32,000 nucleotides of DNA from Gemmata obscuriglobus (GTDB lineage: Bacteria; Planctomycetota; Planctomycetia; Gemmatales; Gemmataceae). A program made the position numbers and the translations under genes. Below, piece after piece: positions 960-27,841 of the stretch. Within the stretch, counting starts at the first letter, position 1. Every line of letters starts with the position of its first letter. Location: the NCBI RefSeq assembly GCF_008065095.1, contig NZ_CP042911.1:1440001-1472000 (forward strand), given 5' to 3'. Under the pieces are notes generated by a model. The model searched no databases, had not been told where the DNA came from, and worked only from the letters and a program-made list of their open reading frames with translations.

Positions 960-976
960 CGCTGCCATCGGCCGGG
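960..976 (+). promoter_or_regulatory. copy 1 of shared motif CGCTGCCATCGGCCGGG, ending 1 nt before the ATG at 978
   Basis: Exact 17-mer shared with 14104-14120 and 27825-27841. The 14-nt core TGCCATCGGCCGGG is also at 18257-18270. The regulatory role is inferred, not shown. Confidence 0.5.
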
Positions 977-977
977 C

Positions 978-2126
978 ATGACCACACCCCGGCGCATCAC
1001 CGAACACGTCCGCGCTCCGTTCCGCGGCGCCCGCCCGAACCGCGAGTCGGGCACCATCGACGGCGTGCTCATCTGCGGCACCGCCAGCGCCAACGGGCGC
1101 GACTACCCCGTCGCCGTGCTGCGCCGCGACTGCGCCCGCTACGAGGGCCGGCCGGTCAACTGCGACCACGGCCGCGAGAGCACCGTGGAGCGGCGGCTCG
1201 GGTGGTTCACCAACGTCCGCCCCGGACCCGACGGGCGGCCCCGCGGCACCCTCAACCTGCTCCGCTCGCACCCCATGTACGAGCGCGTCATGGAGGCCGC
1301 CGAGCGCAACCCCGCGCTGTACGGGTTCAGCCACGTCGCGCTCTGCGACACCCGGCCCGGACCCGACGGGCGCGAGGTCGTCGAAGCCATCCGGGCCGTC
1401 GAGTCCATCGACCTCGTCGCACAACCCGCTACCACCAAAGGCCTGTTCGAAGGAGCACCCGTGCCGTTCACCCGCGCCCGACTGGTCGAGTGGCTCGCCG
1501 CGCACCCGGCGTCCACCCGCCGCCAACTCACCGCCGCCCGCCGGCTCGCCGAGATCGACGGCCCGGACGGCACCGACGGCACCGACATGCCGGCCGCCGA
1601 CGCGCCCCCGCCGCCCGACGCCGGCGCCGCCGCCCCGCTCGACGCCGCGTTCCTCGCCGCGGCCACCGACGAACTCAAGGCGTGCATGGCCGCCAAGGGC
1701 GACCCGAAGGCGCTCGGCAAGTGCCTCGCCAAGCTCAAGAAGATGCTCCGCGCGCACGCCGACATCACCACTGACGACACCGACACCGACGCCGACGCGC
1801 CCGAAACCGAGCCGCTCGACGACGACACCGACACCGACGACGGCGCCCCGAAGCCGGAGAGCGCGCGGCGCCGGGCCGGGGCCGTGCTGGAAGCGCTGGA
1901 CGTGTGCGAGCGGCTCGGCTACCGCCCCGGGCGCGAGGACCTGGAGCTGATCGCCGCCGCCCCGCGCGACCGCCGCGCCGCACTGGCCGCCCGGCTCCAG
2001 TGGGCCGCCGCGCCCGCGCCCGAGCGGCCCACCAGCGCCGGCCGCGGGCGCCTCGGGGCGCTCACCCGGGCCAGCGAATCGAAGCCGCCCGCCGACCCGA
2101 AGGCGTTCGCCGAGTGGATCGAGTGA
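978..2126 (+). CDS. phage prohead protease with C-terminal acidic scaffold-like region
   Basis: In-frame ATG at 978 within ORF 816..2126; the upstream codons are repeat sequence. The N-terminal half (GTIDGVLICGTASANGRDYP...CDHGRE...GWF...GFSHVA...VESIDLVAQPATTKGLFE) has the layout of caudoviral prohead serine proteases. The C-terminal part is Ala-rich helical plus a TDDTDTDADAPETEPLDDDTDTDD acidic tract, as in scaffolds. It sits directly upstream of the capsid genes. Confidence 0.6.
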   Translation: MTTPRRITEHVRAPFRGARPNRESGTIDGVLICGTASANGRDYPVAVLRRDCARYEGRPVNCDHGRESTVERRLGWFTNVRPGPDGRPRGTLNLLRSHPMYERVMEAAERNPALYGFSHVALCDTRPGPDGREVVEAIRAVESIDLVAQPATTKGLFEGAPVPFTRARLVEWLAAHPASTRRQLTAARRLAEIDGPDGTDGTDMPAADAPPPPDAGAAAPLDAAFLAAATDELKACMAAKGDPKALGKCLAKLKKMLRAHADITTDDTDTDADAPETEPLDDDTDTDDGAPKPESARRRAGAVLEALDVCERLGYRPGREDLELIAAAPRDRRAALAARLQWAAAPAPERPTSAGRGRLGALTRASESKPPADPKAFAEWIE

Positions 2127-2188
2127 CCGCCCCTCGGACCGGCACGGCCGCACCCGCACACCGCCCCCCAACATAACGAGGCCCGAAC

Positions 2189-2902
2189 GTGAACATCGTC
2201 CGCATGCCGCAAGCCCTGCGCGAAGCCAAAGACCTGCACGGGGTCTACGACGACTTCCCGTGGTACATCAGCCCGCACCTGTGGACCGCCACCCTCACCG
2301 ACTCCGGCACCGTCGTGGCCGCCGGCGTCGGCGGGATCGCCACCCTCACCAGCTCCGACGGGAGCGTGGCCGACAACGACGAATCGTACCTCGCTACCAC
2401 CATCGCCCTGTTCAAGCCCGCCGCCAACAAGCCGCTATACGCCGAAGCCCTGATCCAGTTCACCGAGGCCGCAACCGACGACGCCAACGTGGCGTTCGGG
2501 CTCGCGTCGTCGGTGGGGGCGAACCTGATCCTGGACGACGGCGCCGGGCTCCGCGCCAGCGGGACGGTCGTTGCCATCTACAAGGTGGACGGCGACACGG
2601 CGTGGCGGTTCGTCACCCGCAACGGCTCGGACGTGACCGTGAGCCAGAGCCAGGAGAGCGCCGGCGGGGCCGGCTACCAGCAGCTCGGGATCGAGGTCCT
2701 CGACGCCTTCGGCAGCTACGCCACCTGCGTCCCCACCGTGGACGGCCGGCTCATGCGCGACGCCGTCACCGGCCAGCCGATCCGGCACCAGCTCCTGCTC
2801 ACCGGCCTCGCCCCCGCGAGCCTGTTCGTGGGCGCCAAGAACGGCGGCGCCAACCTCGAAACCACCAACGTCGATTACGCCGGCTGCTGGCAGGCGCGCT
2901 GA
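2189..2902 (+). CDS. phage head-module protein (possible decoration/cement or auxiliary capsid protein)
   Basis: 237-aa ORF with a GTG start preceded by ACGAGG. It lies between the protease/scaffold gene and the major capsid gene. The sequence is Gly/Ala/Thr-rich and looks beta-rich. The family was not recognised with certainty. Confidence 0.45.
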   Translation: MNIVRMPQALREAKDLHGVYDDFPWYISPHLWTATLTDSGTVVAAGVGGIATLTSSDGSVADNDESYLATTIALFKPAANKPLYAEALIQFTEAATDDANVAFGLASSVGANLILDDGAGLRASGTVVAIYKVDGDTAWRFVTRNGSDVTVSQSQESAGGAGYQQLGIEVLDAFGSYATCVPTVDGRLMRDAVTGQPIRHQLLLTGLAPASLFVGAKNGGANLETTNVDYAGCWQAR

Positions 2903-3139
2903 GGAAATGCGGAGTGCGGAATTCGGAATGCGGAATTGAAGACAACAAGAACAATATCGCCCAGGCACCTGTTCGATGTTCCGCATTGCGGCTGTTCCGC
3001 ACCGAATTGCGTCCCGCTTGCTCGTTGTCTTGTATTTTGTTTGTTTGTTTGTTGGTTGGTTGGTTCTATTCCGAATTCCGAATTCCGCGTTCCGAATTGG
3101 GAACGTTCCGCATTCCGAACTCCACATTCCGAATTACCT
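2903..3139. repeat. AT-richer inverted arrays of heptamer repeats (AATNCGG)n ... (CCGNATT)n forming a long imperfect hairpin
   Basis: The left arm is aatgcgg agtgcgg aattcgg aatgcgg aattg. The centre has a tgtttgtttgtttgttggttggttgg tract. The right arm is attccga attccga attccgc gttccga ... gcattcc gaactcc acattcc gaatt. ORFs 2435..3127(-), 2799..3002(-), 2875..3405(-) and the first 68 codons of 2936..4345 translate it (NSEFRIPNSEF / SECGIRNAE-type strings). Confidence 0.85.
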
Positions 3140-4345
3140 ATGAACACTGCCAAACTGGTCGAATCGTACAAGCGGCACCCGGCGGAGACGGAGGCCGGGC
3201 TGCGGGCCTCGCTCCGCGGGGGCGCGATCCGCACCGAAGACCTGGACCTCGGCGACCTGTTCGTCGAGTGCTTCGGGTGGAACAACTTCAACCACTGCCG
3301 CAAGAACCTGGGCGACTGCGCCGAGCGCGCGCACGGGGTGCTCCAGCGCGCCCGGGTGGAGGAGGCCGCCGGGGCCAACAGCACCGCGGCGTTCCTCAAC
3401 ATCACCCAGCAGTTCGCCTACGAGCGGGTGCTGGCCGCCTACGACGTGCCCGCCCGCGTCTTCGTGAACGCCATCCCGACCCGGCCCAGCAAGTTCAAGT
3501 TCGAGCGCATCGCGGGCGTCACCCACGTCGGGGACGAGAGCGACGTGGTGGAGGAGGGGAAGCCGTACCCGGAGGTGGGCGTCGGCGAGGACTGGACCGA
3601 CACCCCGGAGACCCGCAAGCGCGGGATGATCGCGCGAGCGACGAAGGAGGCGGTGTTCTTCGACCAGACCGGCGAGTTCATGACCAAGCTCGACTCCCTG
3701 GGCGAGTGGCAGGGGGTGAGCGACGAGAAGCGGGCCATCACCTGCGTGGTGGACGCCGGCGAAACCCCCAAGAACCAGTACCGGTACCGGTGGCGCAACC
3801 TGGGGCCGATCCCCACCTACGGGGACAACAGCGGCGCGCACACCTGGGACAACCTGGTGACGGCCAACGCGTTGGTCGATTACACGGACGTGCAGGCCGC
3901 GTGGCAGGCCCTCGTCGAGATCCTGGACCCGGCCACGGGCGAGCCGCAGAACGTCACGGTCAAGCACATCTGCGTGCCGCCGGCGCTGGCGTTCACCGTG
4001 CCGTTCGCGCTCAAGGGGATGGTGCGCCGCACCGCCCCGGGGTACGCGACCTCGGGGAACCCGGTGGGCAGCGAGATCCCGAACCCGACCGGCGACATCA
4101 TCGGGCAGATCCAGGTGATGAGCAGCCAGTTGTTCCGGGCCGTGTCCGGGTCCGACACCACGTGGTTCCTGGGCGACCTGGGCGGCGCCTTCGAGCAGAT
4201 CGAGAACTGGCCGCTGACGGTCACCACGATGGGCGCCGGCAGCCAACTGGAGTTCGATCAGGACATCATCTTCCAGAGCAAAGTGTCCAAGCGCAGCACG
4301 TTCAACACGGTCCAGCCGCGCCGCATGTGCAAATGCACCGCGTGA
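3140..4345 (+). CDS. phage major capsid protein (HK97-fold type)
   Basis: In-frame ATG at 3140 in ORF 2936..4345, about 401 aa. The size, the position after protease/scaffold, and sequence character (AAFLNITQQFAYERVL..., KFKFERIAGVTHVGDESDVVEEGKPYPEVG..., ...ATKEAVFFDQTGEF...) are typical of Mu-gpT/HK97-like capsid proteins. Confidence 0.65.
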   Translation: MNTAKLVESYKRHPAETEAGLRASLRGGAIRTEDLDLGDLFVECFGWNNFNHCRKNLGDCAERAHGVLQRARVEEAAGANSTAAFLNITQQFAYERVLAAYDVPARVFVNAIPTRPSKFKFERIAGVTHVGDESDVVEEGKPYPEVGVGEDWTDTPETRKRGMIARATKEAVFFDQTGEFMTKLDSLGEWQGVSDEKRAITCVVDAGETPKNQYRYRWRNLGPIPTYGDNSGAHTWDNLVTANALVDYTDVQAAWQALVEILDPATGEPQNVTVKHICVPPALAFTVPFALKGMVRRTAPGYATSGNPVGSEIPNPTGDIIGQIQVMSSQLFRAVSGSDTTWFLGDLGGAFEQIENWPLTVTTMGAGSQLEFDQDIIFQSKVSKRSTFNTVQPRRMCKCTA

Positions 4346-4385
4346 GGTGCGGGCACCGGGAAAACAGACACCACGGGAACCGATT

Positions 4386-4676
4386 ATGGCCGACGAGACC
4401 AAGAAGGCGGGCGCGCGGGCGGGGCACGCGAAGGGCGAACCGCCCGCCCCGAAGCCCGGCGCGCGGGTGTGCGATCCGACCGAGCGGGCGGGGGAGGGGC
4501 TCAAGCGGTTCAAGCTGCGTCTGGAAGGGCACCCCTTCGGGGCACGCACCCAGCGGTACGTGCTCGCCCCGGACCGCGACAGCGCCGTGGGCGAGTACCT
4601 GCGGGCGGAGGGCATCGACCCGGGCGACGTGGACGGCGCGGGCGTCCGGGTGGTGGCGACCGAGCTGCCGGACTGA
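4386..4676 (+). CDS. small phage head-module protein, unknown function
   Basis: In-frame ATG at 4386 of ORF 4347..4676 (MADETKKAGARAGH...). It follows the capsid gene on the same strand. Confidence 0.45.
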   Translation: MADETKKAGARAGHAKGEPPAPKPGARVCDPTERAGEGLKRFKLRLEGHPFGARTQRYVLAPDRDSAVGEYLRAEGIDPGDVDGAGVRVVATELPD

Positions 4677-4781
4677 GGTGGGGGTGGAACTGGGTGCTCG
4701 CGGGGCCGGGCGATCGGTCGCCCCGCGAACACACGCGCCGTCAGCGGTTTCTCACTCACACGAGTTGGTACGAGGTCGCCC

Positions 4782-5009
4782 ATGCCGACGCCCCTTCAGA
4801 ACTTGCAGGCCGCGTACCGCGACGTGTGCGCGAAGATCGCCGAGGTGCTGGCGAACCCGCTGCCGGACTACACGCTCCCCGGGGGCGTGCGGGTGGACCG
4901 CAAGACCTACTACGAGAGCCTGCTGGACCAGGAGAAGAGCCTGCGGGCCATCCCCGGGGCCGCCCCGGACACCAACCCCGTGTTCACCCAGACCAGCATC
5001 GTGAGGTAG
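4782..5009 (+). CDS. small phage connector-region protein, unknown function
   Basis: 75-aa ORF (MPTPLQNLQAAYRDVCAKIAEVLANP...). It sits in the head-tail connector position and its stop is 2 nt before the next start. Confidence 0.5.
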   Translation: MPTPLQNLQAAYRDVCAKIAEVLANPLPDYTLPGGVRVDRKTYYESLLDQEKSLRAIPGAAPDTNPVFTQTSIVR

Positions 5010-5011
5010 CC

Positions 5012-5359
5012 GTGGCCGACGAACTGGACGGCATCGACTTCGGCGCCGACTTTGAGGCGCTCGCGCAGGGAACCGCCCCGGTCGCGGTGGCGAGCGTCGA
5101 TGCCATCAGCGGGGTAGCGGCGGTCACTGTAACGGGGGTTACAGCCGCGAAGCTGATCCGCAAGGGCTCCACCGGGCCGGCCCGGTCGGGCGAGGTCCAC
5201 ACCACGCAGAACGAGTTCTGGCTCCGCACGGACCGGCTCGGGTTCGTGCTGAAGCCGGTGGACCGGATCACCGAAGGCGACGGCACGGTGTGGGTGGTTG
5301 CCGAGGTGAACGAGGTGGCGGGCCGCATCGTGCGGTGCCCGGTCACGAGGAAGAGGTGA
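5012..5359 (+). CDS. possible head-tail adaptor / head-closure protein
   Basis: GTG at 5012 in the frame of ORF 4469..5359 (MADELDGIDFGADFEAL...DRITEGDGTVWVVAEVNEVAGRIV). The size (115 aa) and position fit. The call rests on synteny and weak pattern resemblance. Confidence 0.35.
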   Translation: MADELDGIDFGADFEALAQGTAPVAVASVDAISGVAAVTVTGVTAAKLIRKGSTGPARSGEVHTTQNEFWLRTDRLGFVLKPVDRITEGDGTVWVVAEVNEVAGRIVRCPVTRKR

Positions 5360-5363
5360 GCCC

Positions 5364-5825
5364 GTGCCGAACCCGGTGAGCCCGAACCTGATCGCCGACG
5401 CCGTGGTGGCCGCCGTCCGGGCGCTGAACCTCGTGCCCGGCAACAAGGTGCAGAAGCTCAAGACCCCGAGCCTGCCGAGCGGGGTGGACCCGCCGTTCAT
5501 CGCCGTGTGCGTGGGCGAGGGCGGCGAAGAGGGGCAGACGACGATTCTCACGTACCGGCACAAGATCAACCGCTACCCGACCACCGTCGTCATCATCGGA
5601 GCGGGCGACGGGCGCGTGCTGGCGGACGGCGAGCGGGTGCGGGAGTGGCGCACGCTCATCGAGCAGGCCGTGGGCGACTCCCGGGGGTGTTTCGCGACCG
5701 TCCCCGGGTGGCTGTTCACGGCGACGATCGGGAAGGCCCCGTTCGACGGCAGCCTGATCCCGCGCGACCTCGATTACTCGGCACAAACGTTCAACGTGGC
5801 GGTCGTGGAACCCCGGAGCACCTGA
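5364..5825 (+). CDS. phage neck / tail-completion region protein
   Basis: 153-aa ORF with a GTG start preceded by AAGAGG. It is tightly coupled to its neighbours. The call is by synteny only. Confidence 0.4.
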   Translation: MPNPVSPNLIADAVVAAVRALNLVPGNKVQKLKTPSLPSGVDPPFIAVCVGEGGEEGQTTILTYRHKINRYPTTVVIIGAGDGRVLADGERVREWRTLIEQAVGDSRGCFATVPGWLFTATIGKAPFDGSLIPRDLDYSAQTFNVAVVEPRST

Positions 5826-5826
5826 G

Positions 5827-6207
5827 ATGCCGTTTACGCATTCGATTAGCCTGACCTGGGGCGCGGGTGGCGACCTGATCGGCACCGCCGTGAGCAAGAC
5901 CGGCGGGATCGAGCAGAACTTTTCGCTCGGGCTCGGGACCGTGACCCACCAGTTGATCGACCTCGAATGGGCCGCGGCCAAGCTGCTCGCGATCTTCATC
6001 GTGGTCGACGCGGACTGCACGCTGAAGCTGAACAGCAGCGGCAGCCCGACGGACACCATCGCCCTCAAGCCCGGCGCCCCGTTCTGCTGGGTGCGGGACA
6101 GCGGGGTGGCGTACCCGTTCGTCGGGACCGCGGGCGCCGTGACCGCGGGGTACGTGACCACCGCGGCCGCAACGGGGATCGAGATCCGCACCCTGCTGGA
6201 CCTGTGA
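5827..6207 (+). CDS. phage structural protein, unknown function
   Basis: 126-aa ORF whose start abuts the previous stop (TGAGATG). Confidence 0.45.
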   Translation: MPFTHSISLTWGAGGDLIGTAVSKTGGIEQNFSLGLGTVTHQLIDLEWAAAKLLAIFIVVDADCTLKLNSSGSPTDTIALKPGAPFCWVRDSGVAYPFVGTAGAVTAGYVTTAAATGIEIRTLLDL

Positions 6208-6209
6208 CC

Positions 6210-6713
6210 ATGCCGCTCGACGCCGTCAGCCTCAGTGCCGCCTGCCGCTTCTCGTTCGCCCGGCCGGTGGCCGGCTGGGCGGCCCTGGAGCAGGGGACCA
6301 ACCAGGTCGCGTTCGGCGGCGCCCTCGACCCGGCCGCGTGGGACCAGGCGTACGCCGGCGTCCTCACCGTCGCGGGGGGCGGCGCCGCAACGATCGATCT
6401 GACGAACTTCACCGACCTGACCGGTCAGACCGGTGTCGCGCTCGCCGCGGTGCTGGGGCTGATCGCGCGGGCCGAGCCGGCCGACCCGGACAACAGCGAC
6501 ATCGCCGTCCGCGTCGGGCCGGGGGACGCGAACGGGTTCCAGTGGCTCGCCGGGGCCGGGGCGGTCGCGCTCGGCGCGGGCGAGTCGGTCGTAAAGATGG
6601 GCGCCCCGGCCGGCGGCGGCGGGGCCGTCGGCGGTACGCACAGGACGCTGAAGGTCGCCAACGCCGGGGCCGACGCCGCGACGGTGACCATCGTCATCAT
6701 CGGCCACACGTGA
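6210..6713 (+). CDS. phage structural protein, unknown function
   Basis: In-frame ATG at 6210 within ORF 5967..6713 (MPLDAVSLSAACRFSF...TVTIVIIGHT), 2 nt after the previous stop. Confidence 0.45.
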   Translation: MPLDAVSLSAACRFSFARPVAGWAALEQGTNQVAFGGALDPAAWDQAYAGVLTVAGGGAATIDLTNFTDLTGQTGVALAAVLGLIARAEPADPDNSDIAVRVGPGDANGFQWLAGAGAVALGAGESVVKMGAPAGGGGAVGGTHRTLKVANAGADAATVTIVIIGHT

Positions 6714-6720
6714 GGGGCCC

Positions 6721-7098
6721 ATGCCGGACAACTTTATCAGCGGCAACAACAGTTACGTGAAGCTCGGCGCGGTCGCGTTCAGCTTCAACAAGTGGCGCCT
6801 GCCGCTCGACGGGGGCGTGAAGAAGTTCTTCGCCTTCGGGCACAACTTCCAGCGCACGCTGCCCGGCGGGGTCGCGGGCGCGCCGGTGTGCGAGGGGCCG
6901 TACAACGCGGGCAACATGCCGCTCGCGCTCGGCGCCCTGGTGGTGCTGCACCTGGGGTTCGCGGCGGGCGTGGAGCTCGCCGTCAACGCCCGGGTGTCCA
7001 CCATCGAGTACAGCAGCGAGATCAGCGCCGGGGGGGACCCGGCCCAGTGCTCCGTCGGGTTCGAGACCGACGGCGAGTTCACCATCAACTTCACCTGA
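6721..7098 (+). CDS. probable tail tube protein
   Basis: 125-aa ORF immediately upstream of the chaperone pair and the tape measure, which is the canonical siphovirus order. The sequence is beta-rich (NSYVKLGAVAFSFNKW...EFTINFT). Confidence 0.5.
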   Translation: MPDNFISGNNSYVKLGAVAFSFNKWRLPLDGGVKKFFAFGHNFQRTLPGGVAGAPVCEGPYNAGNMPLALGALVVLHLGFAAGVELAVNARVSTIEYSSEISAGGDPAQCSVGFETDGEFTINFT

Positions 7099-7109
7099 CC
7101 GGAGCCGGT

Positions 7110-7577
7110 ATGAGCGAACGCGCGGCAGCCTTCGGCGCGCTGAACCCGCCGAAGGTGATCGAACACCGGGGCAAGACGTACCGCGTCGCGCCCGTCATGA
7201 CCGAGGGCACGCTGCTCCGGGTGGAGGAGCGGCTGTACGAGCGCGCCCGGGCGGCGCTGAAGGGCGCCCGCGAGCTGTACGCGGACGCGGAGTACGCGGC
7301 CGAGGTGGCGAAGCTGCGGGCGCGGCACGAGGCCGGCGAGTTCGCGTTCTCCAGCGAGAAGACGCTGGCGCACCTGGGCACCACCGAGGGCGCCGCGCTG
7401 CTGCTCTCGTGCATGATGGACGCCGACCTGGGGGAGGTGCTCCAGCTCCTCACCGAGCGCGAGGCGGACGTGCGCGAGCTGCTCGACGAGGCGGTGGAGC
7501 TGAGCTTCCCAAAAGGATCGCCCCCGCGGCCGGCGCCGGAGCCGCGGGGCGACCGGCCGCGCCCGAAGCGCCGGTGA
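7110..7577 (+). CDS. tail assembly chaperone (gpG-like)
   Basis: ATG at 7110 in the frame of ORF 6792..7577. It lies between the tube and tape measure genes. It contains a slippery heptamer near its 3-prime end, and the -1 frame is open from 7409 to 7876. Confidence 0.65.
   Translation: MSERAAAFGALNPPKVIEHRGKTYRVAPVMTEGTLLRVEERLYERARAALKGARELYADAEYAAEVAKLRARHEAGEFAFSSEKTLAHLGTTEGAALLLSCMMDADLGEVLQLLTEREADVRELLDEAVELSFPKGSPPRPAPEPRGDRPRPKRR
7508..7514 (+). promoter_or_regulatory. candidate -1 programmed ribosomal frameshift site C CCA AAA
   Basis: The zero-frame codons are ttC CCA AAA, an X XXY YYZ heptamer. It lies 61 nt upstream of the gpG-like stop. The -1 frame continues ...PKRIAPAAGAGAAGRPAAPEAPVRTPG... 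through to 7876. Confidence 0.55.
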
Positions 7578-7876
7578 GGACGCCGGGGGCGCTGACCGCC
7601 CGGTACGCCGTCCTCGTGAACGTCCACCGGCTGCGGATGCACGAGGTGCTAGACCTGACCCCGCGCCAGGTCCACGAGTTGTACTTCCACCCGCGGGACC
7701 GGGACGGGGCGATCCAACTCCCGGAAGGGGCCGGGGACGAGCCGGCCGACCGGACGGCGCGACTGGCCCAACTGATCGCGCTCGGGCCGGCGCTGGGCGT
7801 GCCGCCGGAGCAGATCGAGGAACTGAAGCGCCGACTGGGGGCCGTAACCGATGGCGACACCGGACCAACAGCTTGA
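7574..7876 (+). CDS. gpT-like ORF in the -1 frame, probably expressed as a G-T fusion (7110..7514 joined to 7514..7876)
   Basis: The frame is -1 relative to 7110..7577. A GTG at 7574 overlaps the upstream stop (GTGA). The ORF ends inside the start of the tape measure gene. Confidence 0.5.
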   Translation: MRTPGALTARYAVLVNVHRLRMHEVLDLTPRQVHELYFHPRDRDGAIQLPEGAGDEPADRTARLAQLIALGPALGVPPEQIEELKRRLGAVTDGDTGPTA

Positions 7877-9095
7877 GGCCCTCACCCGGCTCACCGCGCA
7901 ACAGCTCGGCACCCTGAAGCTGATTCAGGGCGCCGTCGGTCAGATCAACGGGCAACTGAAGGGGCTGAAGGCGCCGGGACCCAAGCTCCCCAGCGCGGGG
8001 GGCGGGGGCGCTGGCGGTGGTAAGGGTAAAGGAACGAACCCGCTCGAGATGATCGGCGGGTTCGTCGGCAAGTTCGGCAAGGTGCTGGGCGTCGCCGGCG
8101 CGGTCGTCAGCGGCGTGGTCGCCGCGCTCACCGCGATCCCGATGGCGATCGTCGGCGTCGTTCAGGCGTCGGCGTCGTACGTCGGCGCCCTCAACCCGTC
8201 CGCCGTCGAGCAGTACGATCGGGCGCAGAACGACCTGCGCGCGACCATCGGGTACGGGCTGCAGCCGATCATCGCGTACGCGACCAAATCGCTCAAAGAC
8301 TGGGCCGGCATCCTGCTCCCGTCGATCCAGCAACTGCGCCCGGTGGTGGAACGCATCTCGGCGGCCGTGAGCGGGTACCTGATCGGCCCGGTCCGCCTGG
8401 TGGGGAAGCTCATCGACGGCTTCGCCAAGGGGCTCGAGGGCGTGCTGCCGGTGATCGAGAGCCTGGTCTCGACGGCCGCGGCGTTCGGCGAGGTCCAGCA
8501 GGCCATTACGGACGTGCTGGCGGCGTCCGGCCTCGGGCAGCTCTTGGGCGTGAAGAACGATCTGAACCGGGAGCTGCTCAAGTTCACCGCCGAGGCGTTC
8601 CGGAAGCTCGTCACCGCCCTCGTAATCGCGACCGCGCGGCTGCTACAACTGGCGGGTGCCACCGAGTCGCTGAAGCGGTTCAAGGACTCGCTGCAGGGCG
8701 CAGTTGACGCCCGAAAGGCGCCCAAAAGCGGCCTCACCGCGGCGCCGTCCGACGCCGGCACGGGTTCGATCGAGGACGTGCTGAAGCGGCTGAACGAGCG
8801 GGCGTTTGTCGCGACCTCGGGCGCCACCACCAAACAGACGGACACCGAGTACCTGGAAGACCTTGTGAAGGTGGTGGGGCAGATCCAGGCGAACCCGTTG
8901 AACTGGAAGCAGATGATAACCGACGCGGTCCGCGACGCCCTGCCGCCCGGGCCGGCGGCGCTGCTGGATTTCGTCGGAATGGGTGACGCCAGCAGCGGCG
9001 GGAGCCGACGCGGGGGCGGGGCGGCCGGCGCGGCCGGGTTGCTGACCCGGTTCGCGGCCGGCGGACTGCGCGGCGCGATGTTTGGGGGGAGCTGA
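7851..9095 (+). CDS. tail tape measure protein (short, 414 aa)
   Basis: It lies after the G/GT pair. It has a Gly-rich tract, a hydrophobic segment (VLGVAGAVVSGVVAALTAIPMAIVGVV) and long helical Ala/Leu-rich stretches typical of tape measure proteins. Confidence 0.7.
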   Translation: MATPDQQLEALTRLTAQQLGTLKLIQGAVGQINGQLKGLKAPGPKLPSAGGGGAGGGKGKGTNPLEMIGGFVGKFGKVLGVAGAVVSGVVAALTAIPMAIVGVVQASASYVGALNPSAVEQYDRAQNDLRATIGYGLQPIIAYATKSLKDWAGILLPSIQQLRPVVERISAAVSGYLIGPVRLVGKLIDGFAKGLEGVLPVIESLVSTAAAFGEVQQAITDVLAASGLGQLLGVKNDLNRELLKFTAEAFRKLVTALVIATARLLQLAGATESLKRFKDSLQGAVDARKAPKSGLTAAPSDAGTGSIEDVLKRLNERAFVATSGATTKQTDTEYLEDLVKVVGQIQANPLNWKQMITDAVRDALPPGPAALLDFVGMGDASSGGSRRGGGAAGAAGLLTRFAAGGLRGAMFGGS

Positions 9096-9096
9096 G

Positions 9097-10242
9097 ATGG
9101 CACTGATGATGGAGCTGACCGGCGACAGCGAGCGTATGTCCACCGCAATTTCGCAGGAAGATGGGTCCGCCGAGGCGACGTACCGCATCATCGGTGACAC
9201 GCAGGACCAGCCCCCGGACGCGGACACGCTGCGCACCGTGGTTGACGGCTTCCTGGGCGGCGTGCTGAACCTGAAGGCGCGTGTCGTCGGCCAACAGTAC
9301 GCGGAGGCGGGCAAGATCAACCGCGTGCTCCCTGTCGTTCACCCGTTCCGGCCGGAACTGTCCGCCTCCGCGATCACGATTTCCGGCATCGGCAAGAGCC
9401 AGGCGGCCGACTCGAAGCCCACCGGGCTGTCGGCGGTGACGGTGCAGTACCCCCACTGGACCGCGTACGACCTGAAGGTCCGCTTCCAGAAGCGGCCGTA
9501 CCCGCTGGTGAAGAACGAGAACATCGCGGTCAAGAGCGACCTGACGTACTACCCACCCGACGGCAGCGCGGGCAAAACGGTCACCTACGCGGAGGAGTGG
9601 CGGCGGTTCACGACGCTCACGCGCACGCCGACCGGCGAAACGGTGTCCGCGAGCCTGGGTTCGATGATGTTCAAAACGCAGACCGGAACCGTTGCACCAC
9701 ACAACCGCAACTACACCGGGCAGGTCTACGCGTACCTTCCGAACGAGATGATTGAGCTGAACTGGTTCATGGTTCCGTTCCGGTACTTCCAGCAGTACGG
9801 CGATTCAAAGCCCTATTTGACGCGGTTCCAGAACACCATCAACCAGTACCCGTTCCTGGGGTTCGGTGCCGGCTCCTTGCTGTTCCTGGGGGCGACGCCG
9901 ACGAGCTACATCCCGGTGACGCCCGATGCGAAGCTGTACACGCAGGGGCTGGAAACCGGTGCCGACGCCGGGCTGCTGTGCAACGTGAAGCTGCGGTTCC
10001 TGTACACCTCGCGGGAGGGCACAGACGTGCCCGACTCGTCGAACCCGCTGTTGACGGCGAACCGGAACCGCGTTGCGGCGGGGCACAACCTGCTCATCAA
10101 CTACAGCGATCGACGGTACTACTACACCGTCACGGAGCCCACACCCGGCTCGGATGCGGGCCGGCACCCGAGCTTCGATTCGTTCCCGTTCCAGCTACTG
10201 TTCACCGACCCTCTGTACCAACAACCGGGCGGGGCGATTTGA
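9097..10242 (+). CDS. tail-tip protein, candidate receptor-binding protein
   Basis: ATG at 9097, 1 nt after the tape measure stop, 381 aa. It is the only tail gene downstream of the tape measure. Its last roughly 170 codons are duplicated at 10890-11400. Confidence 0.45.
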   Translation: MALMMELTGDSERMSTAISQEDGSAEATYRIIGDTQDQPPDADTLRTVVDGFLGGVLNLKARVVGQQYAEAGKINRVLPVVHPFRPELSASAITISGIGKSQAADSKPTGLSAVTVQYPHWTAYDLKVRFQKRPYPLVKNENIAVKSDLTYYPPDGSAGKTVTYAEEWRRFTTLTRTPTGETVSASLGSMMFKTQTGTVAPHNRNYTGQVYAYLPNEMIELNWFMVPFRYFQQYGDSKPYLTRFQNTINQYPFLGFGAGSLLFLGATPTSYIPVTPDAKLYTQGLETGADAGLLCNVKLRFLYTSREGTDVPDSSNPLLTANRNRVAAGHNLLINYSDRRYYYTVTEPTPGSDAGRHPSFDSFPFQLLFTDPLYQQPGGAI

Positions 10243-10243
10243 T

Positions 10244-10687
10244 CTAATTCGGTCGCCGTTGCACACCACGGACGATCCCATCTTTCAACTGAATAAACAT
10301 CCCAGTAGGGGAACGATCAATCGACGACTCTGTGGGCTTCAGCCATTTCGGCTCCCAATAGATCCAGAGGGTGTGAATTCCGTCGGTATCCAGACCTGAT
10401 GAGTTCGGCTTTCCCAACAGCGCCTTCACCTCATCGTCCGTCAGCCCGATCAGCTTCTTTGTGGCCGTGCCCTCGCTCCACGGCAACCCCAAGTCGGGCT
10501 TATCGTCTTTCTTGGGCTTTTCGGACTTTTCGGGCTTATCGCCCGGTGCGACGTGCGGCGCGGGCGCGGATCGTGGGTCGTGCTCCGGTTGTTGCTGTGC
10601 AACGGCGGGAGGTGGTGTCGGCGCCGACTTCGGTTTACAACCGGAGGTGAGAAGGGCGAGCGAGAGGACGAAGAGGCACGTGCGCAT
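10244..10687 (-). CDS. lipoprotein, paralog A (convergent with the tail-tip gene)
   Basis: The N-terminus MRTCLFVLSLALLTSGCKPK is a signal peptide plus lipobox-like Cys. A Pro/Lys-rich linker follows, then a roughly 70-aa C-terminal domain. Its stop is 1 nt from the tail-tip gene stop. Confidence 0.7.
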   Translation of the reverse strand: MRTCLFVLSLALLTSGCKPKSAPTPPPAVAQQQPEHDPRSAPAPHVAPGDKPEKSEKPKKDDKPDLGLPWSEGTATKKLIGLTDDEVKALLGKPNSSGLDTDGIHTLWIYWEPKWLKPTESSIDRSPTGMFIQLKDGIVRGVQRRPN

Positions 10688-10749
10688 GGGCAGACCCGAG
10701 CGGGCGGTGTGAACCGCGGGCGTCCGGCCCGCGCGCCGCCCGCGCTCAG

Positions 10750-10778
10750 AGGTTATCCGATGGGTGGGCAGGTGTGAA
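10750..10778 (-). promoter_or_regulatory. candidate promoter TTCACA-N17-TAACCT for lipoprotein A
   Basis: The minus strand reads ccacTTCACAcctgcccacccatcggaTAACCTctgagcg, about 60-90 nt upstream of the ATG at 10687. The same architecture recurs at 11905-11933, 13264-13292 and 13549-13577. Confidence 0.4.
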
Positions 10779-10782
10779 GTGG

Positions 10783-10882
10783 TCGAATGGTCACTTTGGT
10801 GCGCAGGCGGTGGCGACGGGTGTCACGACGGCTGTCTGAAGAGGCACACCAGCGCGGCGAGCGCCGGCCCCGCCGGCCCGAT
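10783..10882 (-). pseudogene. relic of the 3-prime end and downstream flank of the DUF1304 gene at the duplication junction
   Basis: It aligns with 13582-13672, including the exact 28-mer gaagaggcacaccagcgcggcgagcgcc (10838-10865 = 13628-13655). The minus strand would encode ...ALAALVCLFRQPS*, compared with ...ALAALVCLFRQPA* in the intact gene. Confidence 0.7.
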
Positions 10883-10889
10883 CGTACCT

Positions 10890-11400
10890 GTACCTTCCGA
10901 ACGGGATGATTGAGCTGAACTGGTTCATGGTTCCGTTCCGGTACTTCCAGCAGTACGGCGATTCAAAGCCCTATTTGACGCGGTTCCAGAACACCATCAA
11001 CCAGTACCCGTTCCTGGGGTTCGGTGCCGGCTCCTTGCTGTTCCTGGGGGCGACGCCGACGAGCTACATCCCGGTGACGCCCGATGCGAAGCTGTACACG
11101 CAGGGGCTGGAAACCGGTGCCGACGCCGGGCTGCTGTGCAACGTGAAGCTGCGGTTCCTGTACACCTCGCGGGAGGGCACAGACGTGCCCGACTCGTCGA
11201 ACCCGCTGTTGACGGCGAACCGGAACCGCGTTGCGGCGGGGCACAACCTGCTCATCAACTACAGCGATCGGCGGTACTACTACACCGCCACGGAGCCCAC
11301 ACTCGGCTCGGATGCGGGCCGGCACCCGAGCTTCGATTCGTTCCCGTTCCAACTGCTGTTTACCGACCCACTGTATCAGCAGCCGGGCGGGGTAATCTAA
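10890..11400 (+). pseudogene. 5-prime-truncated duplicate of the tail-tip gene 3-prime region (ORF 10906..11400); silent cassette or remnant
   Basis: The 164-aa ORF matches the C-terminus of 9097..10242 except near the end (YYYTATEPTLGS...QQPGGVI vs YYYTVTEPTPGS...QQPGGAI). It lacks the N-terminal ~216 codons and has no evident RBS. Confidence 0.7.
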
Positions 11401-11843
11401 TACGGGGGGAGGCGGTAAATTTGCCTCGCCTTCCCACCCCGCATGCAAAGGACAAACCCTGTGGGTCGCAAGTCAGTTGAGCCTTCCGGCGGGCTCAGCC
11501 ACTTGTTTTGAGTGTATCGCCACTCGGTGAACTGAAGATCCGAAGAAGGGCTCACGTGATCAGGTTTGCCAATCAGCGCCTTCACTTCGTCGTCCGTCAG
11601 CCCGATCAGCTTCTTGTTCGCGGTGCCTTCGGACCAAGGTAGGCCCAAGTCGGGCTTATCGTCTTTCTTGGGCTTTTCGGACTTTTCGGGCTTATCGCCC
11701 GGTGCGACGTGCGGCGCGGGCGCGGATCGTGGGTCGTGCTCCGGTTGTTGCTGTGCAACGGCGGGAGGTGGTGTCGGCGCCGACTTCGGTTTACAACCGG
11801 AGGTGAGAAGGGCGAGCGAGAGGACGAAGAGGCACGTGCGCAT
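11397..11843 (-). CDS. lipoprotein, paralog B
   Basis: The N-terminal ~75 aa match paralog A almost exactly. The C-terminal ~55 aa differ (DHVSPSSDLQFTEWRYTQNKWLSPPEGSTDLRPTGFVLCMRGGKARQIYRLPPY vs NSSGLDTDGIHTLWIYWEPKWLKPTESSIDRSPTGMFIQLKDGIVRGVQRRPN). Its stop overlaps the stop of the truncated tail copy. Confidence 0.7.
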   Translation of the reverse strand: MRTCLFVLSLALLTSGCKPKSAPTPPPAVAQQQPEHDPRSAPAPHVAPGDKPEKSEKPKKDDKPDLGLPWSEGTANKKLIGLTDDEVKALIGKPDHVSPSSDLQFTEWRYTQNKWLSPPEGSTDLRPTGFVLCMRGGKARQIYRLPPY

Positions 11844-11904
11844 GGGCAGACCCGAGCGGGCGGTGTGAACCGCGGGCTCCGGCCCGCGCGCCGCCCGCGC
11901 TCAG

Positions 11905-11933
11905 AGGTTACCCGACGGGTGGGCAGGTGTGAA
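11905..11933 (-). promoter_or_regulatory. candidate promoter TTCACA-N17-TAACCT for lipoprotein B
   Basis: The minus strand reads TTCACAcctgcccacccgtcgggTAACCT, the duplicate of 10750-10778. Confidence 0.4.
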
Positions 11934-12042
11934 GTGGACGGGCGCCTACGTGATCGAGCCGATAACCTTCGCTCGATGCCGTTTGCGTGAAGGCGAGTAC
12001 GATAGGCGGCGGATTCCCTCACCCTGCACGAGAGGAAAAGCC

Positions 12043-15739: not shown

Positions 15740-15768
15740 TTCGACCACAGCTTCACGAGAGGATCGGG

Positions 15769-18246: not shown

Positions 18247-18256
18247 TTGTGTCGCG

Positions 18257-18270
18257 TGCCATCGGCCGGG
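18257..18270 (+). promoter_or_regulatory. copy 3 of shared core motif TGCCATCGGCCGGG, 20 nt upstream of the ATG at 18291
   Basis: Exact 14-mer shared with the other three copies. A GGAGGA Shine-Dalgarno sequence follows at 18278-18283. Confidence 0.5.
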
Positions 18271-18290
18271 AACCTGTGGAGGATGCGGAC

Positions 18291-18533
18291 ATGCCGGCGA
18301 GCCTATCGGACCCGAGCGACTACTATTTCGCGGTCACCCCGAGCAACACGGCGAACGCCCCGCGCGCGTTCCGGTCCTTGCGGATCGGCGCCGCCGGGGA
18401 CGTGGTGGTGGTGCGAAAGGACGGCGCCGCGGTCACGTTCAAGAACTGCCAGGGCGGCGAGTGCCTGCCGGTCGAGGGCGTGCGCGTGAACGCCACGGGC
18501 ACCACCGCCGCCGACATCGTCGCCTACGCATGA
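18291..18533 (+). CDS. small phage/GTA spike-base-like protein (resembles the RCAP_rcc01079 family)
   Basis: ATG at 18291 in ORF 17082..18533, 80 aa. The pattern FAVTPSNTANAP...LRIGAAGDVVVVRKDGAAVTFKNCQGGECLPVEGVRVNATGTTAADIVAYA matches my recollection of that family (A-x-TPSDT ... GxAGDv ... vtf ... lP ... V-x-ATGTTA). Confidence 0.5.
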   Translation: MPASLSDPSDYYFAVTPSNTANAPRAFRSLRIGAAGDVVVVRKDGAAVTFKNCQGGECLPVEGVRVNATGTTAADIVAYA

Positions 18534-18543
18534 GGGGAGCGCG

Positions 18544-19857
18544 ATGAAATCGGGCGTGGGGCTGGCGATCAATCAGTTGCGGCGGACGGGCGGCATTACC
18601 GTGCCATCGCCACAGGAATCATGGCTGTCTACCGGCGGTCACTTCACAGACACGGCCGGTACTACCCCGGCGACGGCGACCGGCCAATTAGTAAAGTGCT
18701 GGACAGGTGTAGGCGGAGGAAAACTAACGGACATTGGGTCGAATTTTTGCACATATCAGAAGGACGCGGCCGGCATTGGGAAACACGCGGTGCGCGCCGA
18801 CGCAGCGGTACTGATCGGCGGAGTGCTGCCGGCGCCCCTGGATATGCAAAACCACGCGATGGTAATCGTTTACGAGAGGCGCCGGACGGATCGGGCTTCA
18901 TGCGTGAACGTGCTCACGACCGCTGATAACTTCGGTAGCGCGGGGCTGCATTTGATTAACGGATATCAGCGCCCTGAGATTGGTAGTTTGGGGAGCTACC
19001 TGCCGAGCGAGTACGGCGCGCCACTGACCGGTTTCTGGGTGATCGGGTTCACGAGTGTGGCGAGCGGATATCAGTGGTGTGTCAACGGGCGGTTGGCTCG
19101 CGCCAGCGCCACGCCATTAGCCGCCGGAACGAGGCCGGCAATCGGAATCGGGACCATCTCCGGGGTGAATTCGGGGGGGGATCTCGCGCAGCTTGACGTG
19201 TGGGCGACCGGACTCACTGGCCCGCAACTCCAGGCAGCGGTTCAAGCCCGTATGGCTACCTTCGGGATCACACTCCCGAGTCGGTCCGTTAACGTCATCT
19301 TCACCGGTAACTCGATCACATACGGCGCGTCTGCCGGATTTGCACCGTTCGCCTCGATCGCTGCGGACGCCGCCAGCGTGTCAGCCCATGATTGGCGCAA
19401 CTGGGGGAGTTCTGGCGCTACCACGTCCGCGCTCCAAAGTCGCGATGCGGCGATGTGGGGGACGTGGTATCAAGCCGGAACCAAGAACGTTGCGGTTCAG
19501 TGGGAGCTAACTAACTCGCTTGCATCTGGTGCTAGTGTCGCATCGACACTAGCGTCTCATGCGCAGTGGGTGGCGGACTCCAGGGCGGCCGGGTTCAAGA
19601 GCGTATGCCCCACCGTGATCAATCGCACCAGCCTGTTCAGCGGTGGTACGGACGCCACTGCATTTGCGGCTGCTCAGGCGGCTACTAACGCCGCGCTCTT
19701 GAGCAACTCGGGTGGGATTTATGGGGATGTGATCGTGGATTTGAGTAGCGTCGCATCGGCGGGCACCGCCGGCGACGGCACGCACCCGATCCAGGCCGGG
19801 CACACCGCGATTGGCGGTCTGGTGGGGGTGGGGCTGGCGACCGCACTGGCGATGTAA
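18544..19857 (+). CDS. LamG/ConA-like lectin domain fused to an SGNH/GDSL esterase (candidate spike/fibre with deacetylase activity)
   Basis: 437 aa with an RBS GAGGGGAG. The N-terminal half ends ...LAQLDVWATGLTGPQLQAA, which is LamG-like. The C-terminal half carries VIFTGNSITYG (block I Ser), WELTNS (block III-like) and DGTHPIQAGH (block V D-x-x-H). Confidence 0.65.
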   Translation: MKSGVGLAINQLRRTGGITVPSPQESWLSTGGHFTDTAGTTPATATGQLVKCWTGVGGGKLTDIGSNFCTYQKDAAGIGKHAVRADAAVLIGGVLPAPLDMQNHAMVIVYERRRTDRASCVNVLTTADNFGSAGLHLINGYQRPEIGSLGSYLPSEYGAPLTGFWVIGFTSVASGYQWCVNGRLARASATPLAAGTRPAIGIGTISGVNSGGDLAQLDVWATGLTGPQLQAAVQARMATFGITLPSRSVNVIFTGNSITYGASAGFAPFASIAADAASVSAHDWRNWGSSGATTSALQSRDAAMWGTWYQAGTKNVAVQWELTNSLASGASVASTLASHAQWVADSRAAGFKSVCPTVINRTSLFSGGTDATAFAAAQAATNAALLSNSGGIYGDVIVDLSSVASAGTAGDGTHPIQAGHTAIGGLVGVGLATALAM

Positions 19858-26429: not shown

Positions 26430-26620
26430 GAAAGCGACATCGCAGGTGGGCACGTGAATTCGGAACGGGGAGCTTGGCGCGACGGGGGCGGCTCGGACGT
26501 GACGAGGCGTGGACCGGCCGCGTGACGGGCGAAGCGCCGCCGCGGGATCGCGAGAGGTGATCGAAACGCTGCAGTTCTGTAAACGGGCGAGTCGCGGGGA
26601 GAGGAGGTGCGGTCCGGCTT

Positions 26621-26809
26621 CTAACGGGTTGTTGCTACCGTGGTGCCTTGCTTGGACCACCACGGGGCCACCCGCCAGACGCAGGTGTGGCAGGCGCGGC
26701 ACCGCAGCGCGTGGACGCACACCAGCCGCAGGGCGCGGAGCTTCGGGTTGCGCCGCAGCCAGAAATCCCGGCTCTGACACTTCGGACACGATCGGCTGAA
26801 ACCAAGCAT
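26621..26809 (-). CDS. candidate small zinc-ribbon protein (62 aa)
   Basis: The sequence is MLGFSRSCPKCQSRDFWLRRNPKL...CRACHTCVW, with CPKC...CRAC pairs. GC-rich third codon positions are consistent with coding. An AT-rich stretch lies upstream at 26810-26910. No homology was recognised. Confidence 0.3.
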   Translation of the reverse strand: MLGFSRSCPKCQSRDFWLRRNPKLRALRLVCVHALRCRACHTCVWRVAPWWSKQGTTVATTR

Positions 26810-27003
26810 GTTATTGTCCTAGGTGAAATTCAGGGCGGTTTTCATCCTTGTACTCACACATACCGAACAAGTCGAGTTGAATTAAGCTTTTTTAATTTGC
26901 CTCTCCGCGGTCGTGATATTGCACGCCGGCTGCCGCAGCTCACGTCTCGGACCGCGGCAAGGGGCTTGTTTCATACACGTACACGGTGGTCGTGTCGCAT
27001 TTC

Positions 27004-27069
27004 TTGACGAGCCGCGACCGCCGGGAGCGGTGGCACGTACCGCGCTCCCTGGCGGTCGCGGCTCGTCAG
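27004..27069. repeat. 24-bp-arm palindromic element, copy 2
   Basis: The sequence is ttgacgagccgcgaccgccgggag-(loop)-ctccctggcggtcgcggctcgtcag, with one arm mismatch. Confidence 0.8.
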
Positions 27070-27824
27070 AAAGTGACACCCACGGCGGGCTCATGTATCA
27101 GGCCCCGTTACACGTGCCCGGTGCCATCAGATAGATGGGGAGCGTTACGGCTCCGGGTCACGAGTCGTCCGGTCAGCAAGTCGTAACGTCACGAACCATC
27201 ATTCACACCGGATCTGTGACCTTACGACTTTCGACGATCGGACTTTTGACCCGAAGTCCTTCCGGGTTCGGGTTAAACCGGGCGTTTCTCGGCGTTACCG
27301 GTTCCGGGCGAAGTGGCGAGCCGCGCGAGTGATCCGGACTTTGTACCGCATCGGCCCCCAAGTTGGAACCGGAATCGGAAGTAACCGCATTGGGCCGGTC
27401 GATTCTCGGTCGCCCGGGGAGCCGGGAATCCCTTCGGTACCGGCTTCCGGTGGGGCAACAACGGGACATTAGCTGTCGGTTCGGGGGCCGTTCGCTGGTC
27501 GCCCGCTACCACGGAATCCCGGTGTTAAAACCCGGAATGGTGGCCGAACGCGAACCGGCCGGAACCGAGAATACCACGCCCGCCGCGACGTAACGTGCTG
27601 TTTGTGTGAGGATTTGCGGAAAGTTGCTCGCGGCGGTGGTGCCGCGGCTTCCGGCCCCGGCCGGTCTCGATCGCCCCTCTCCGAGGGGAGTCGAACTTCC
27701 GGTAGCGATTCCGGAGTTCGACCGGATGGAGCTGGGTGCCCGTACCGGGACATGAGTTCCGCCCCGCGCGCCCCGTGCCCTCCGTGTAACCGGGGCACGA
27801 CCCGCCGTCTCGTCGTTCACGTCT

Positions 27825-27841
27825 CGCTGCCATCGGCCGGG
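27825..27841 (+). promoter_or_regulatory. copy 4 of shared motif CGCTGCCATCGGCCGGG, 21 nt upstream of the ATG at 27863
   Basis: Exact 17-mer identical to 960-976 and 14104-14120. Confidence 0.5.

Follow-up and report, generated by a model that had tools for sequence, protein, structure and literature searches.

A 14-nucleotide motif, TGCCATCGGCCGGG, recurs four times in a 32,000-nucleotide stretch of DNA from Gemmata obscuriglobus (contig NZ_CP042911.1, positions 1,440,001 to 1,472,000 of the forward strand; hereafter the window, with coordinates counted from its first letter), each time shortly upstream of the first gene of a unit in a phage-type gene cluster. Sequence comparisons indicate that Gemmata prophages have in this motif a cis element specific to their lineage, present in multiple copies and close to gene starts. 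We favor the reading, to which we assign a probability of about 50%, that it forms the core of a phage-specific promoter that has no -35 element and starts transcription at the A of the ATG, yielding leaderless mRNAs. We found no description of Gemmata transcription signals, of Gemmata temperate phages or of this motif in the searchable literature; most likely a phage-specific promoter, it would be the first candidate of this type for viruses of Planctomycetes.

The exact 14-mer occupies positions 963-976 (copy 1), 14107-14120 (copy 2), 18257-18270 (copy 3) and 27828-27841 (copy 4), always on the + strand, and three of the four copies are extended by a CGC prefix into a 17-mer that begins at 960, 14104 and 27825. 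A preliminary description of this DNA had placed the 17-mer at these three positions and its 14-nt core at 18257, and exact copies were indeed found there, against a chance expectation for TGCCATCGGCCGGG of ~0.002 per window (our own estimate, at 70% GC) and ~0.6 per 9-Mb genome. Allowing up to two mismatches gave seven matches versus 1.37 ± 1.1 in shuffled sequences, with 0 of 100 shuffles reaching seven, and at up to three mismatches the four exact copies split cleanly from a background of 2-3-mismatch matches, all but one of which (a 3-mismatch match at 31477) were assigned to coding sequence. The accompanying claim that every copy lies on the + strand and none on the reverse strand holds for exact copies, but a one-mismatch copy sits on the - strand at 17592-17605, inside the coding sequence of a glycosyltransferase (GT). 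Because the same 14-mer occurs at the corresponding place in a paralogous GT gene of G. obscuriglobus (L124:9153), and a form with two mismatches in the orthologous GT gene of G. algarum (L128:11824), we regard this copy as a coding-sequence coincidence and count it outside the system.

That the copies are chance matches, or pieces of a common dispersed repeat of the REP (repetitive extragenic palindrome) or MITE (miniature inverted-repeat transposable element) kind unrelated to gene starts, is suggested by the REP-like arrays (499-945) directly upstream of copy 1 and by a genome of 70% G+C, which favors G+C-rich words. However, the flanks of the four copies (100 nt on each side) cannot be aligned and their common part spans only 14-17 nt, so TGCCATCGGCCGGG does not belong to a longer dispersed repeat. 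Chance matches to the 14-mer or 17-mer in unrelated genomes and viral contigs never exceeded one copy per stretch, and only 6% had an ATG within 3 nt, both among the 240 matches listed. A scan of the genome collection with the 17-mer returned at least 120 single chance matches in unrelated high-GC genomes, a scan of IMG/VR with the 14-mer returned single chance matches only, and a degenerate form of the motif, TGCCATYDGYCGKK, is expected by chance about once per complete Gemmata genome. Across related loci from metagenomes and viruses (~745 kb; L129-L208 and L330-L337), the degenerate consensus was confined to a single Gemmata prophage locus (L332) plus one isolated match, and neither the motif nor an equivalent dispersed 11-mer occurred in the related phage contig L330 (whose peptidase is 68% identical), in the distant relative L152 or in the rest of these loci outside L332. 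All four copies are kept in G. algarum, and every copy of the motif lies 1-31 nt upstream of a start codon; the possibility raised in the preliminary description, a dispersed repeat with no bias toward gene starts, is thus not what we found. Copy number, flanks, conservation and controls already contradict the chance or repeat explanation, which retains virtually no probability.

In G. algarum JC717 the same cluster occupies the same locus, beside a phytochrome gene, the orthologous genes compared have near-identical lengths, and TGCCATCGGCCGGG is identical at all four orthologous sites (L127:7855, L127:18507, L128:12672 and L209:3437 for copies 1 to 4). In the 150 nt upstream, identity amounts to 133/152 at copy 1, 63/156 at copy 2, 80/161 at copy 3 and 74/156 at copy 4, against 14/14 within the motif at each. 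The upstream flank of copy 1 is itself well conserved, REP-like array included, which makes this copy uninformative for the comparison; at copies 2-4, where the upstream sequence is only 40-50% identical, conservation starts at the 5' edge of the motif and extends downstream through the leader and Shine-Dalgarno sequence. These alignments point to the motif as the conserved element that lies farthest 5' in each unit. The two flanks of copy 2 have diverged, and nothing but the motif is conserved in its 111-nt intergenic gap; since the downstream protein is only 46% identical, the motif there is an island of identity. Differences at four-fold-degenerate sites rise from 2% in the first gene and 9% in the capsid gene to ~18% in the GT and peptidase genes and 32% in the tail-fiber gene, with 17-32% for such sites neighboring the motif, and at the pooled rate (14.5%) the probability of 42 nt remaining unchanged is ~1e-3. 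Conservation at the nucleotide level, as had been proposed from reading-frame arguments, is therefore what the comparison between species bears out. As an observation in its own right, divergence between the two species is strongly mosaic across 978-19857, which suggests recent exchange of the head module combined with diversifying selection on tail-end proteins.

Clusters in other Gemmata genomes carry variants of the motif. At the same first gene, Gemmata sp. SH-PL17 and a further Gemmata genome (GCA_000531095; IMG 2600255093; loci L122/L125) have TGCCATCGGTCGGG-C-ATG, a 13/14 variant; their sequence further upstream is unrelated, synteny ending ~8 nt 5' of the motif. SH-PL17 additionally has TGCCATTGGCCCTT-C-ATG at its frameshifted Cys-rich gene. 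No co-oriented copy was present in the GT-containing loci L123 (SH-PL17) and L124 (G. obscuriglobus), and in L124 the Cys-rich gene is apparently translationally coupled to its upstream gene instead. In L152 and L149 an intrinsic terminator lies ~60-70 nt upstream of the homologous first gene, which places that gene at the beginning of a unit with little or no leader.

A complete-looking Gemmata prophage shows the same pattern. An IMG/VR-wide scan of all contigs with a degenerate motif+N+ATG pattern, TGCCATYGGYCGGKNATG, returned 52 sites, 47 of which precede short open reading frames (ORFs; a few of 96-108 aa) and occur once per contig; the other five lie in Gemmata prophage contigs, precede ORFs of 88-953 aa, and are the only ones to open long ORFs or to recur within a contig. 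In the uncultivated virus genome (UViG) 2600255093_000008 (L332), a primase-related gene, a ParB/HTH-like gene and the genes for the small terminase TerS (PF03592, 9e-39), the large terminase (phrog_38, 2e-74), a 953-aa portal-like protein and a homologue of the first gene of our cluster (the 'protease') are joined further on by a 416-aa gene, a family-2 glycosyltransferase (GT2) gene, an 88-aa gene, a tail-fiber-like gene, and genes for a secreted protein (homologous to the product of 27863-28468, E = 4e-14) and a peptidase. This element has at least seven co-oriented copies of a variant of its own (TGCCATTGGCCGGT-like). The distance to the start is 1 nt at TerS (TGCCATTTGCCGGG), the portal (TGCCATTGGCCGGT), the 'protease' (TGCCATTGGCCGGT), the 416-aa gene (TGCCATTTGCCGGT) and the 88-aa gene after GT2 (TGCCATTGGCCGGT), the last of which reads GT2 stop, 6 nt, motif, C, ATG and is the equivalent of copy 3. 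It is 31 nt, with a GGAG, at a 134-aa gene (TGCCATTGGCCGTT), and 15-21 nt at the secreted-protein/peptidase cassette (TGCCATTAGCCGGT), the equivalent of copy 4.

Two properties of these copies bear on their function. At equivalent junctions of different phages the motif precedes unrelated genes, namely the 88-aa gene versus the tail-fiber gene after the GT, and the 416-aa gene versus the Cys-rich protein. Moreover, copies are identical or one position apart within an element and differ between elements, even in one genome: another element of the same genome, UViG 2600255093_000006, has TGCCATCGGTCGGG as opposed to the TGCCATTGGCCGGT of 2600255093_000008, so that the variants are element-specific. 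The variant type of the other element, TGCCATCGGTCGGT, was also seen once on the - strand at L332:3130-3143, antisense inside the 416-aa gene of 2600255093_000008; it could be a chance occurrence (~0.1 expected) or an antisense start. The prophage also supports an earlier proposal that the peptidase operon at the far end of the window belongs with the phage-like genes, because its homologous cassette is preceded by that phage's motif variant. G. obscuriglobus has further GT paralogues and a second, paralogous cluster. The same association is seen in that cluster, in which a peptidase paralogue (GobsT_71220, source name 'Peptidase C1A papain C-terminal') is close to a capsid gene (GobsT_71400) 93% identical to that of the window, and in L330, where a papain-like peptidase lies between tail genes and an integrase.

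Across 19 sites T1, G2, C4, A5, T6, G9 and C11 are invariant, and where the motif abuts a start it is followed by C, G, GC or GT and then always by ATG, most such sites reading motif-C-ATG. Nine of the 13 distinct sites have the ATG 1-2 nt after the motif, with no space for a Shine-Dalgarno sequence; the remaining four have a leader of 15-31 nt, in which a clear GGAG or GGAGG is present at three and only a GAGGG-like stretch at the fourth. Both classes occur in the window. Copy 1 is separated by one base (C) from the ATG at 978 and copy 2 by two (GC) from the ATG at 14123, leaving no space for a Shine-Dalgarno sequence at either; copy 3 lies between the GT stop codon (18244-18246) and the ATG at 18291, starting 10 nt after the former and ending 20 nt short of the latter, and copy 4 lies 21 nt before the ATG at 27863. 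The predicted short leaders of these last two units contain GGAGG (18278-18282, +) and GGAG (27850-27853, +), both kept in G. algarum. The distances of 1-21 nt and the missing Shine-Dalgarno sequences at 978 and 14123, both noted in the preliminary description, are thus correct, and the latter contrasts with 14 of 21 other cluster genes that have a site of the GGAG/GAGG type; none of the motif-abutting genes has one. The start codons themselves are backed by other evidence: 978, 14123 and 27863 were also the choices of a separate GC3-based start picker, which at copy 3 preferred an in-frame GTG at 18276 to the ATG at 18291, ortholog alignments begin at residues 1-6 of the 978 gene and at residue 4 of the 14123 gene, and a PHROG tail-fiber match begins at residue 3 of the protein started at 18291.

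The motif had been put forward as a promoter, an operator or a 5' RNA element; the evidence favors the promoter, with the other two as less probable alternatives. As a promoter, the motif would occupy approximately -15 to -2, with TG at -15/-14, CAT at -12 to -10 and a G+C-rich discriminator, and transcription would begin one or two bases after it. The units at 978 and 14123, in which the ATG follows after 1-2 bases, would be transcribed as leaderless mRNAs, which would explain why no Shine-Dalgarno sequence is found there, and those at 18291 and 27863, whose genes begin 20-21 nt further on, would have a short leader with a Shine-Dalgarno sequence of its own. If transcription starts just after the motif, these two classes of sites are to be expected. 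At copy 2, the divergent gene on the other side of the 111-nt gap requires that a promoter lie within the gap, where the motif alone is conserved. C-A is the classical -1/+1 initiation dinucleotide, and the C that precedes the ATG at most abutting sites yields C-A if the A of the ATG is +1. One dedicated factor, either a phage- or host-encoded sigma-type factor or another specificity factor, may read the motif and thereby switch on structural, tail and lysis units together, and element-specific variants are to be expected of such a factor.

Several points weigh against this reading. Initiation at the motif is deduced from sequence, and a search of the window and of about half of the 80-kb 2600255093_000008 recovered no sigma factor, RNA polymerase or other trans-factor, nor a single-subunit RNA polymerase gene; the regulatory-type genes found were a stand-alone receiver domain and the ParB/HTH-like gene upstream of TerS. 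With the A of the ATG as +1, the motif has TG at -15/-14 and A/T at -11/-10, but the G at -7 makes it only a partial fit to the sigma-70 consensus: whichever -10-like register is chosen (CATCGG or TGCCAT), it has A-11 or T-7 but never both. A sigma-70 consensus scanner reported no site at copies 3 and 4, the two that it covered. All 14 positions are kept within an element, more than a -10 of the sigma-70 type requires, and such conservation fits a protein-binding site or the promoter of a phage RNA polymerase equally well. Where the motif lies between co-directional genes in 2600255093_000008, these are only 15-22 nt apart and it takes up the gap, starting 0-7 nt after the stop codon of the upstream gene, a geometry that also fits stoperator-like or translation-coupling elements. 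Finally, G. algarum has a one-mismatch form, TGACATCGGCCGGG-G-ATG, that directly abuts the start called for a GNAT acetyltransferase gene of host appearance (L127:39-56), among host genes 7.8 kb upstream of the cluster, so the motif may not be strictly phage-specific and host genes may share the signal. A second near-copy in that genome, at L127:3166, has a REP array downstream of it and not a gene.

Other signals were sought at the same sites. No conserved -35 element was present among the 19 sites or between orthologous sites, no common RNA fold was obtained over the four window sites (z-scores 0.2-1.5), and no Rfam family reached its gathering threshold there. Inspection by eye and folding of -35 or extracytoplasmic function (ECF)-like elements, sigma-54 geometry and RNA hairpins gave nothing that fits, and a second 'CATCGG' family upstream of the - strand DUF1304 genes proved inconsistent.

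Phage promoters without a -35 element are well known, among them the T4 late promoters (TATAAATA, read by gp55), those of T7-type single-subunit polymerases and the extended -10 middle and late promoters of Thermus phage P23-45. The Gemmata motif resembles them in that a strongly conserved word recurs before many phage units, at about -15 to -2/+1 and in one orientation, with no conserved -35 and with a sequence specific to a phage lineage. It differs in that no phage RNA polymerase, gp55-like sigma or modifier of the host polymerase was found for it, in that its G+C-rich sequence is unlike any of theirs, and in that the start codon abuts the predicted start site. In this last respect it resembles the leaderless promoters of Actinobacteria and Deinococcus, in which a degenerate TANNNT read by the housekeeping sigma serves as a -10 element ~7 nt upstream of the ATG. 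An ATG at the predicted +1, the missing Shine-Dalgarno sequence and an element in the -10 position directly upstream are common to both, whereas the Gemmata word has no TANNNT and is conserved at every one of its 14 positions.

An asymmetric 14-bp site at many gene junctions could also be bound by a prophage repressor (or activator) that silences or gates transcription in an orientation-dependent manner and defines immunity specificity, the real promoters being poorly conserved or overlapping the site. The model for this would be the stoperators of mycobacteriophage L5, the sites of the Cluster A repressor reportedly described by Brown and colleagues in 1997. Like these asymmetric sites of ~13 bp, which occur by the dozen in the short spacers between genes, in the orientation of transcription, and which differ in sequence between heteroimmune relatives, the Gemmata motif is asymmetric and strictly co-oriented with transcription, has many copies in the very short gaps of the complete prophage (upstream stops 0-7 nt before it), keeps all 14 positions within an element and comes in different variants in two elements of one genome, as in heteroimmune phages. 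However, stoperators have no fixed spacing to starts and stand alongside normal ribosome-binding sites, and a repressor site explains neither the nearly invariant one-base spacing to the ATG nor the missing Shine-Dalgarno sequence at 9 of 13 distinct sites. In addition, no repressor gene was found, and the divergent 111-nt gap of copy 2 holds nothing else conserved that could act as a promoter. We consider operator function of this type, the main rival of the promoter reading, unlikely as the primary role of the motif, though it would be compatible with the promoter reading, as a repressor could bind the promoter core.

We find it distinctly doubtful, more so than repressor binding, that the motif acts instead in the mRNA, promoting translation initiation or reinitiation in place of a Shine-Dalgarno sequence by pairing with rRNA or binding a phage factor. 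The position directly before the ATG at most sites is that of a ribosome-binding site, ATG is strongly preferred, and in the complete prophage the motif follows the upstream stop by 0-7 nt. The pattern equals that of the start-associated sequences (SAS) of Cluster K mycobacteriophages, which are 13 bp long, asymmetric, in one orientation, 3-7 bp from starts, ATG-biased and conserved before unrelated genes (Pope et al. 2011; PMC3203893), and Planctomycetes reportedly use few Shine-Dalgarno sequences (PMC5397173). The likeness to SAS goes further: both are short (13-14 bp), asymmetric and single-oriented, have many copies per phage genome directly upstream of starts, are kept across related phages even before unrelated genes, and appear to be absent or rare in the host and other phages, and the function of either lacks experimental assignment. 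Yet the Gemmata motif contains no GGAG, whereas SAS contain the Shine-Dalgarno core AGGAG, and it stands 1-2 or 15-31 nt from the start; it precedes packaging, head, tail and lysis units whereas SAS are restricted to the non-structural arm, and no extended inverted repeats like those of the extended SAS (ESAS) were seen at it. A role confined to translation is further opposed by the 4 of 13 distinct sites at 15-31 nt from the start, three of which have a clear GGAG or GGAGG in the leader, by the lack of complementarity to the canonical anti-Shine-Dalgarno sequence (the 16S 3' end in its general form) and by the lack of a common RNA structure. Copies 1, 2 and 4, moreover, have no co-directional gene immediately upstream, so that transcription would have to start there anyway.

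The motif might, alternatively, be a linker or recombinase site at module boundaries that serves the exchange of phage modules and has no direct role in expression. At the 'protease' gene, synteny between Gemmata genomes does end ~8 nt before the motif is reached, unrelated genes follow it at equivalent junctions of different phages, and divergence ranges from 2% to 32% at four-fold-degenerate sites in a mosaic fashion. But homologous recombination is inefficient over as little as 14 bases, none of the sites has a recombinase associated with it, and exchange accounts for neither the fixed spacing to the ATG, nor the strand bias relative to genes, nor the dichotomy in Shine-Dalgarno sequences; mosaic junctions are expected at promoters anyway. 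We hold this explanation to be very improbable.

By its gene content, the window appears to hold, in a form truncated at the 5' end, one of a family of temperate Gemmata phages that have this motif before most of their late-type units. The first gene of unit 1 (978-2126, +; 382 aa) is in the position of a head protease or scaffold gene upstream of the capsid gene, but searches of PDB, NCBIfam, Pfam and PHROG returned no family assignment for it, so that its protease function is putative. The major capsid protein gene (3140-4345, +; PF25209) encodes a product identical to G. obscuriglobus WP_010040514 / GobsT_12150, and a weak tape-measure-like match is found in the same cluster. The window has no terminase or portal gene, and REP-like arrays and a phytochrome gene lie upstream of copy 1. 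In L152, terminase, portal and MuF-like genes precede the homologue of the 978 gene, separated from it by a strong intrinsic terminator, and from this gene order we deduce that the element in the window is truncated at its 5' end. Unit 2 begins, after the divergent DUF1304 gene (13613-14011, -), with a fast-evolving gene for a Cys/Thr-rich protein of 538 aa (14123-15739, +), followed by the family-2 glycosyltransferase gene (15769-18246, +), whose start was inferred from homologues of 825-832 aa and whose C-terminal methyltransferase match (PF13578) is weak and sub-threshold. Unit 3 comprises an 80-aa tail-fiber-family protein (18291-18533, +; phrog_12296) and a 437-aa product (18544-19857, +) whose G. 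algarum ortholog has a GDSL-lipase domain. Unit 4 is a lysis-type cassette with a secreted Ala-rich protein of 201 aa with a signal peptide (27863-28468, +), the one with a homologue in L332, and a 385-aa homologue of papain-like (C1A-type) peptidases (28534-29691, +), for which 376 homologues were found. A DUF1559 protein with an N-terminal methylation motif, also encoded in the window, fits an origin in Planctomycetota.

In four Gemmata genomes (the window; L121, L122, L127) the motif of the 'protease' gene is the exact beginning of the cluster, terminase and portal genes are missing next to it, and the upstream neighbors vary (phytochrome, MTase/MBL, kinase). Either selection may be keeping such truncated clusters, or they may depend on a complete prophage as a helper. 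In both G. obscuriglobus and G. algarum the terminase and portal genes are missing, yet the ORFs are intact and the four motif copies unchanged at the same locus, for which reason selection may maintain the cluster. On this basis one could propose, tentatively and as a rather improbable extension, that it has been kept as a domesticated or helper-dependent particle-forming element, similar to gene transfer agents (GTAs), tailocins or satellites, with its dispersed modules wired together by the motif and a dedicated, element-matched factor that reads it; this factor would come from a gene outside the cluster, perhaps one in the second, paralogous cluster. As regards the comparison with GTAs, the truncated cluster is syntenic in the two species, and complete prophage relatives with an integrase exist. 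If this is true, Planctomycetes would gain their first domesticated phage system as well as their first defined transcription signal.

Under the promoter reading, the motif would be a compact, portable 14-nt element from which unit starts could be located and leaderless mRNAs predicted, and thus a possible handle for inducible expression in Gemmata; it would also aid the annotation of prophage late operons and gene starts. The distinct versions in two elements of one genome offer a test case for the co-evolution of factor and site, and the papain-like peptidase cassette, homologues of which are numerous in public genomes and metagenomes, is placed in a phage lysis-type module.

Three kinds of repeats in the window were observed in addition. 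The Cys/Thr-rich gene (14123-15739) contains long poly-Thr (ACC-repeat) tracts, and in SH-PL17 the ortholog has a frameshift in a tract of this kind (L121, ~19450-19500), which could make this a contingency-type or an error-prone repeat. The region 9727-12043 holds a tandem duplication of ~1157 bp (9727-10026 versus 10885-11184, 99%; 10407-10706 versus 11563-11862, 94%). In each unit a - strand gene of ~147 aa accompanies the 3' portion of a tail-region gene on the + strand. A third, more diverged unit (13212-13671 region) ends at 13613-14011, the third - strand gene of the series and the one searched for families, which matches DUF1304. SH-PL17 and the L122 genome have 4-5 such - strand genes of 120 aa in the same place, and the duplicated units could be a cassette array at the tail-fiber end of the prophage. 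The REP-like arrays, at 499-648 and 694-945, have units of ~45 nt and ~129 nt, each with a CCCCTCCCTGAAGGGAGGGG-type hairpin; they recur between host genes in G. algarum (L127:3300-3700) and are probably a Gemmata-specific dispersed palindromic element.

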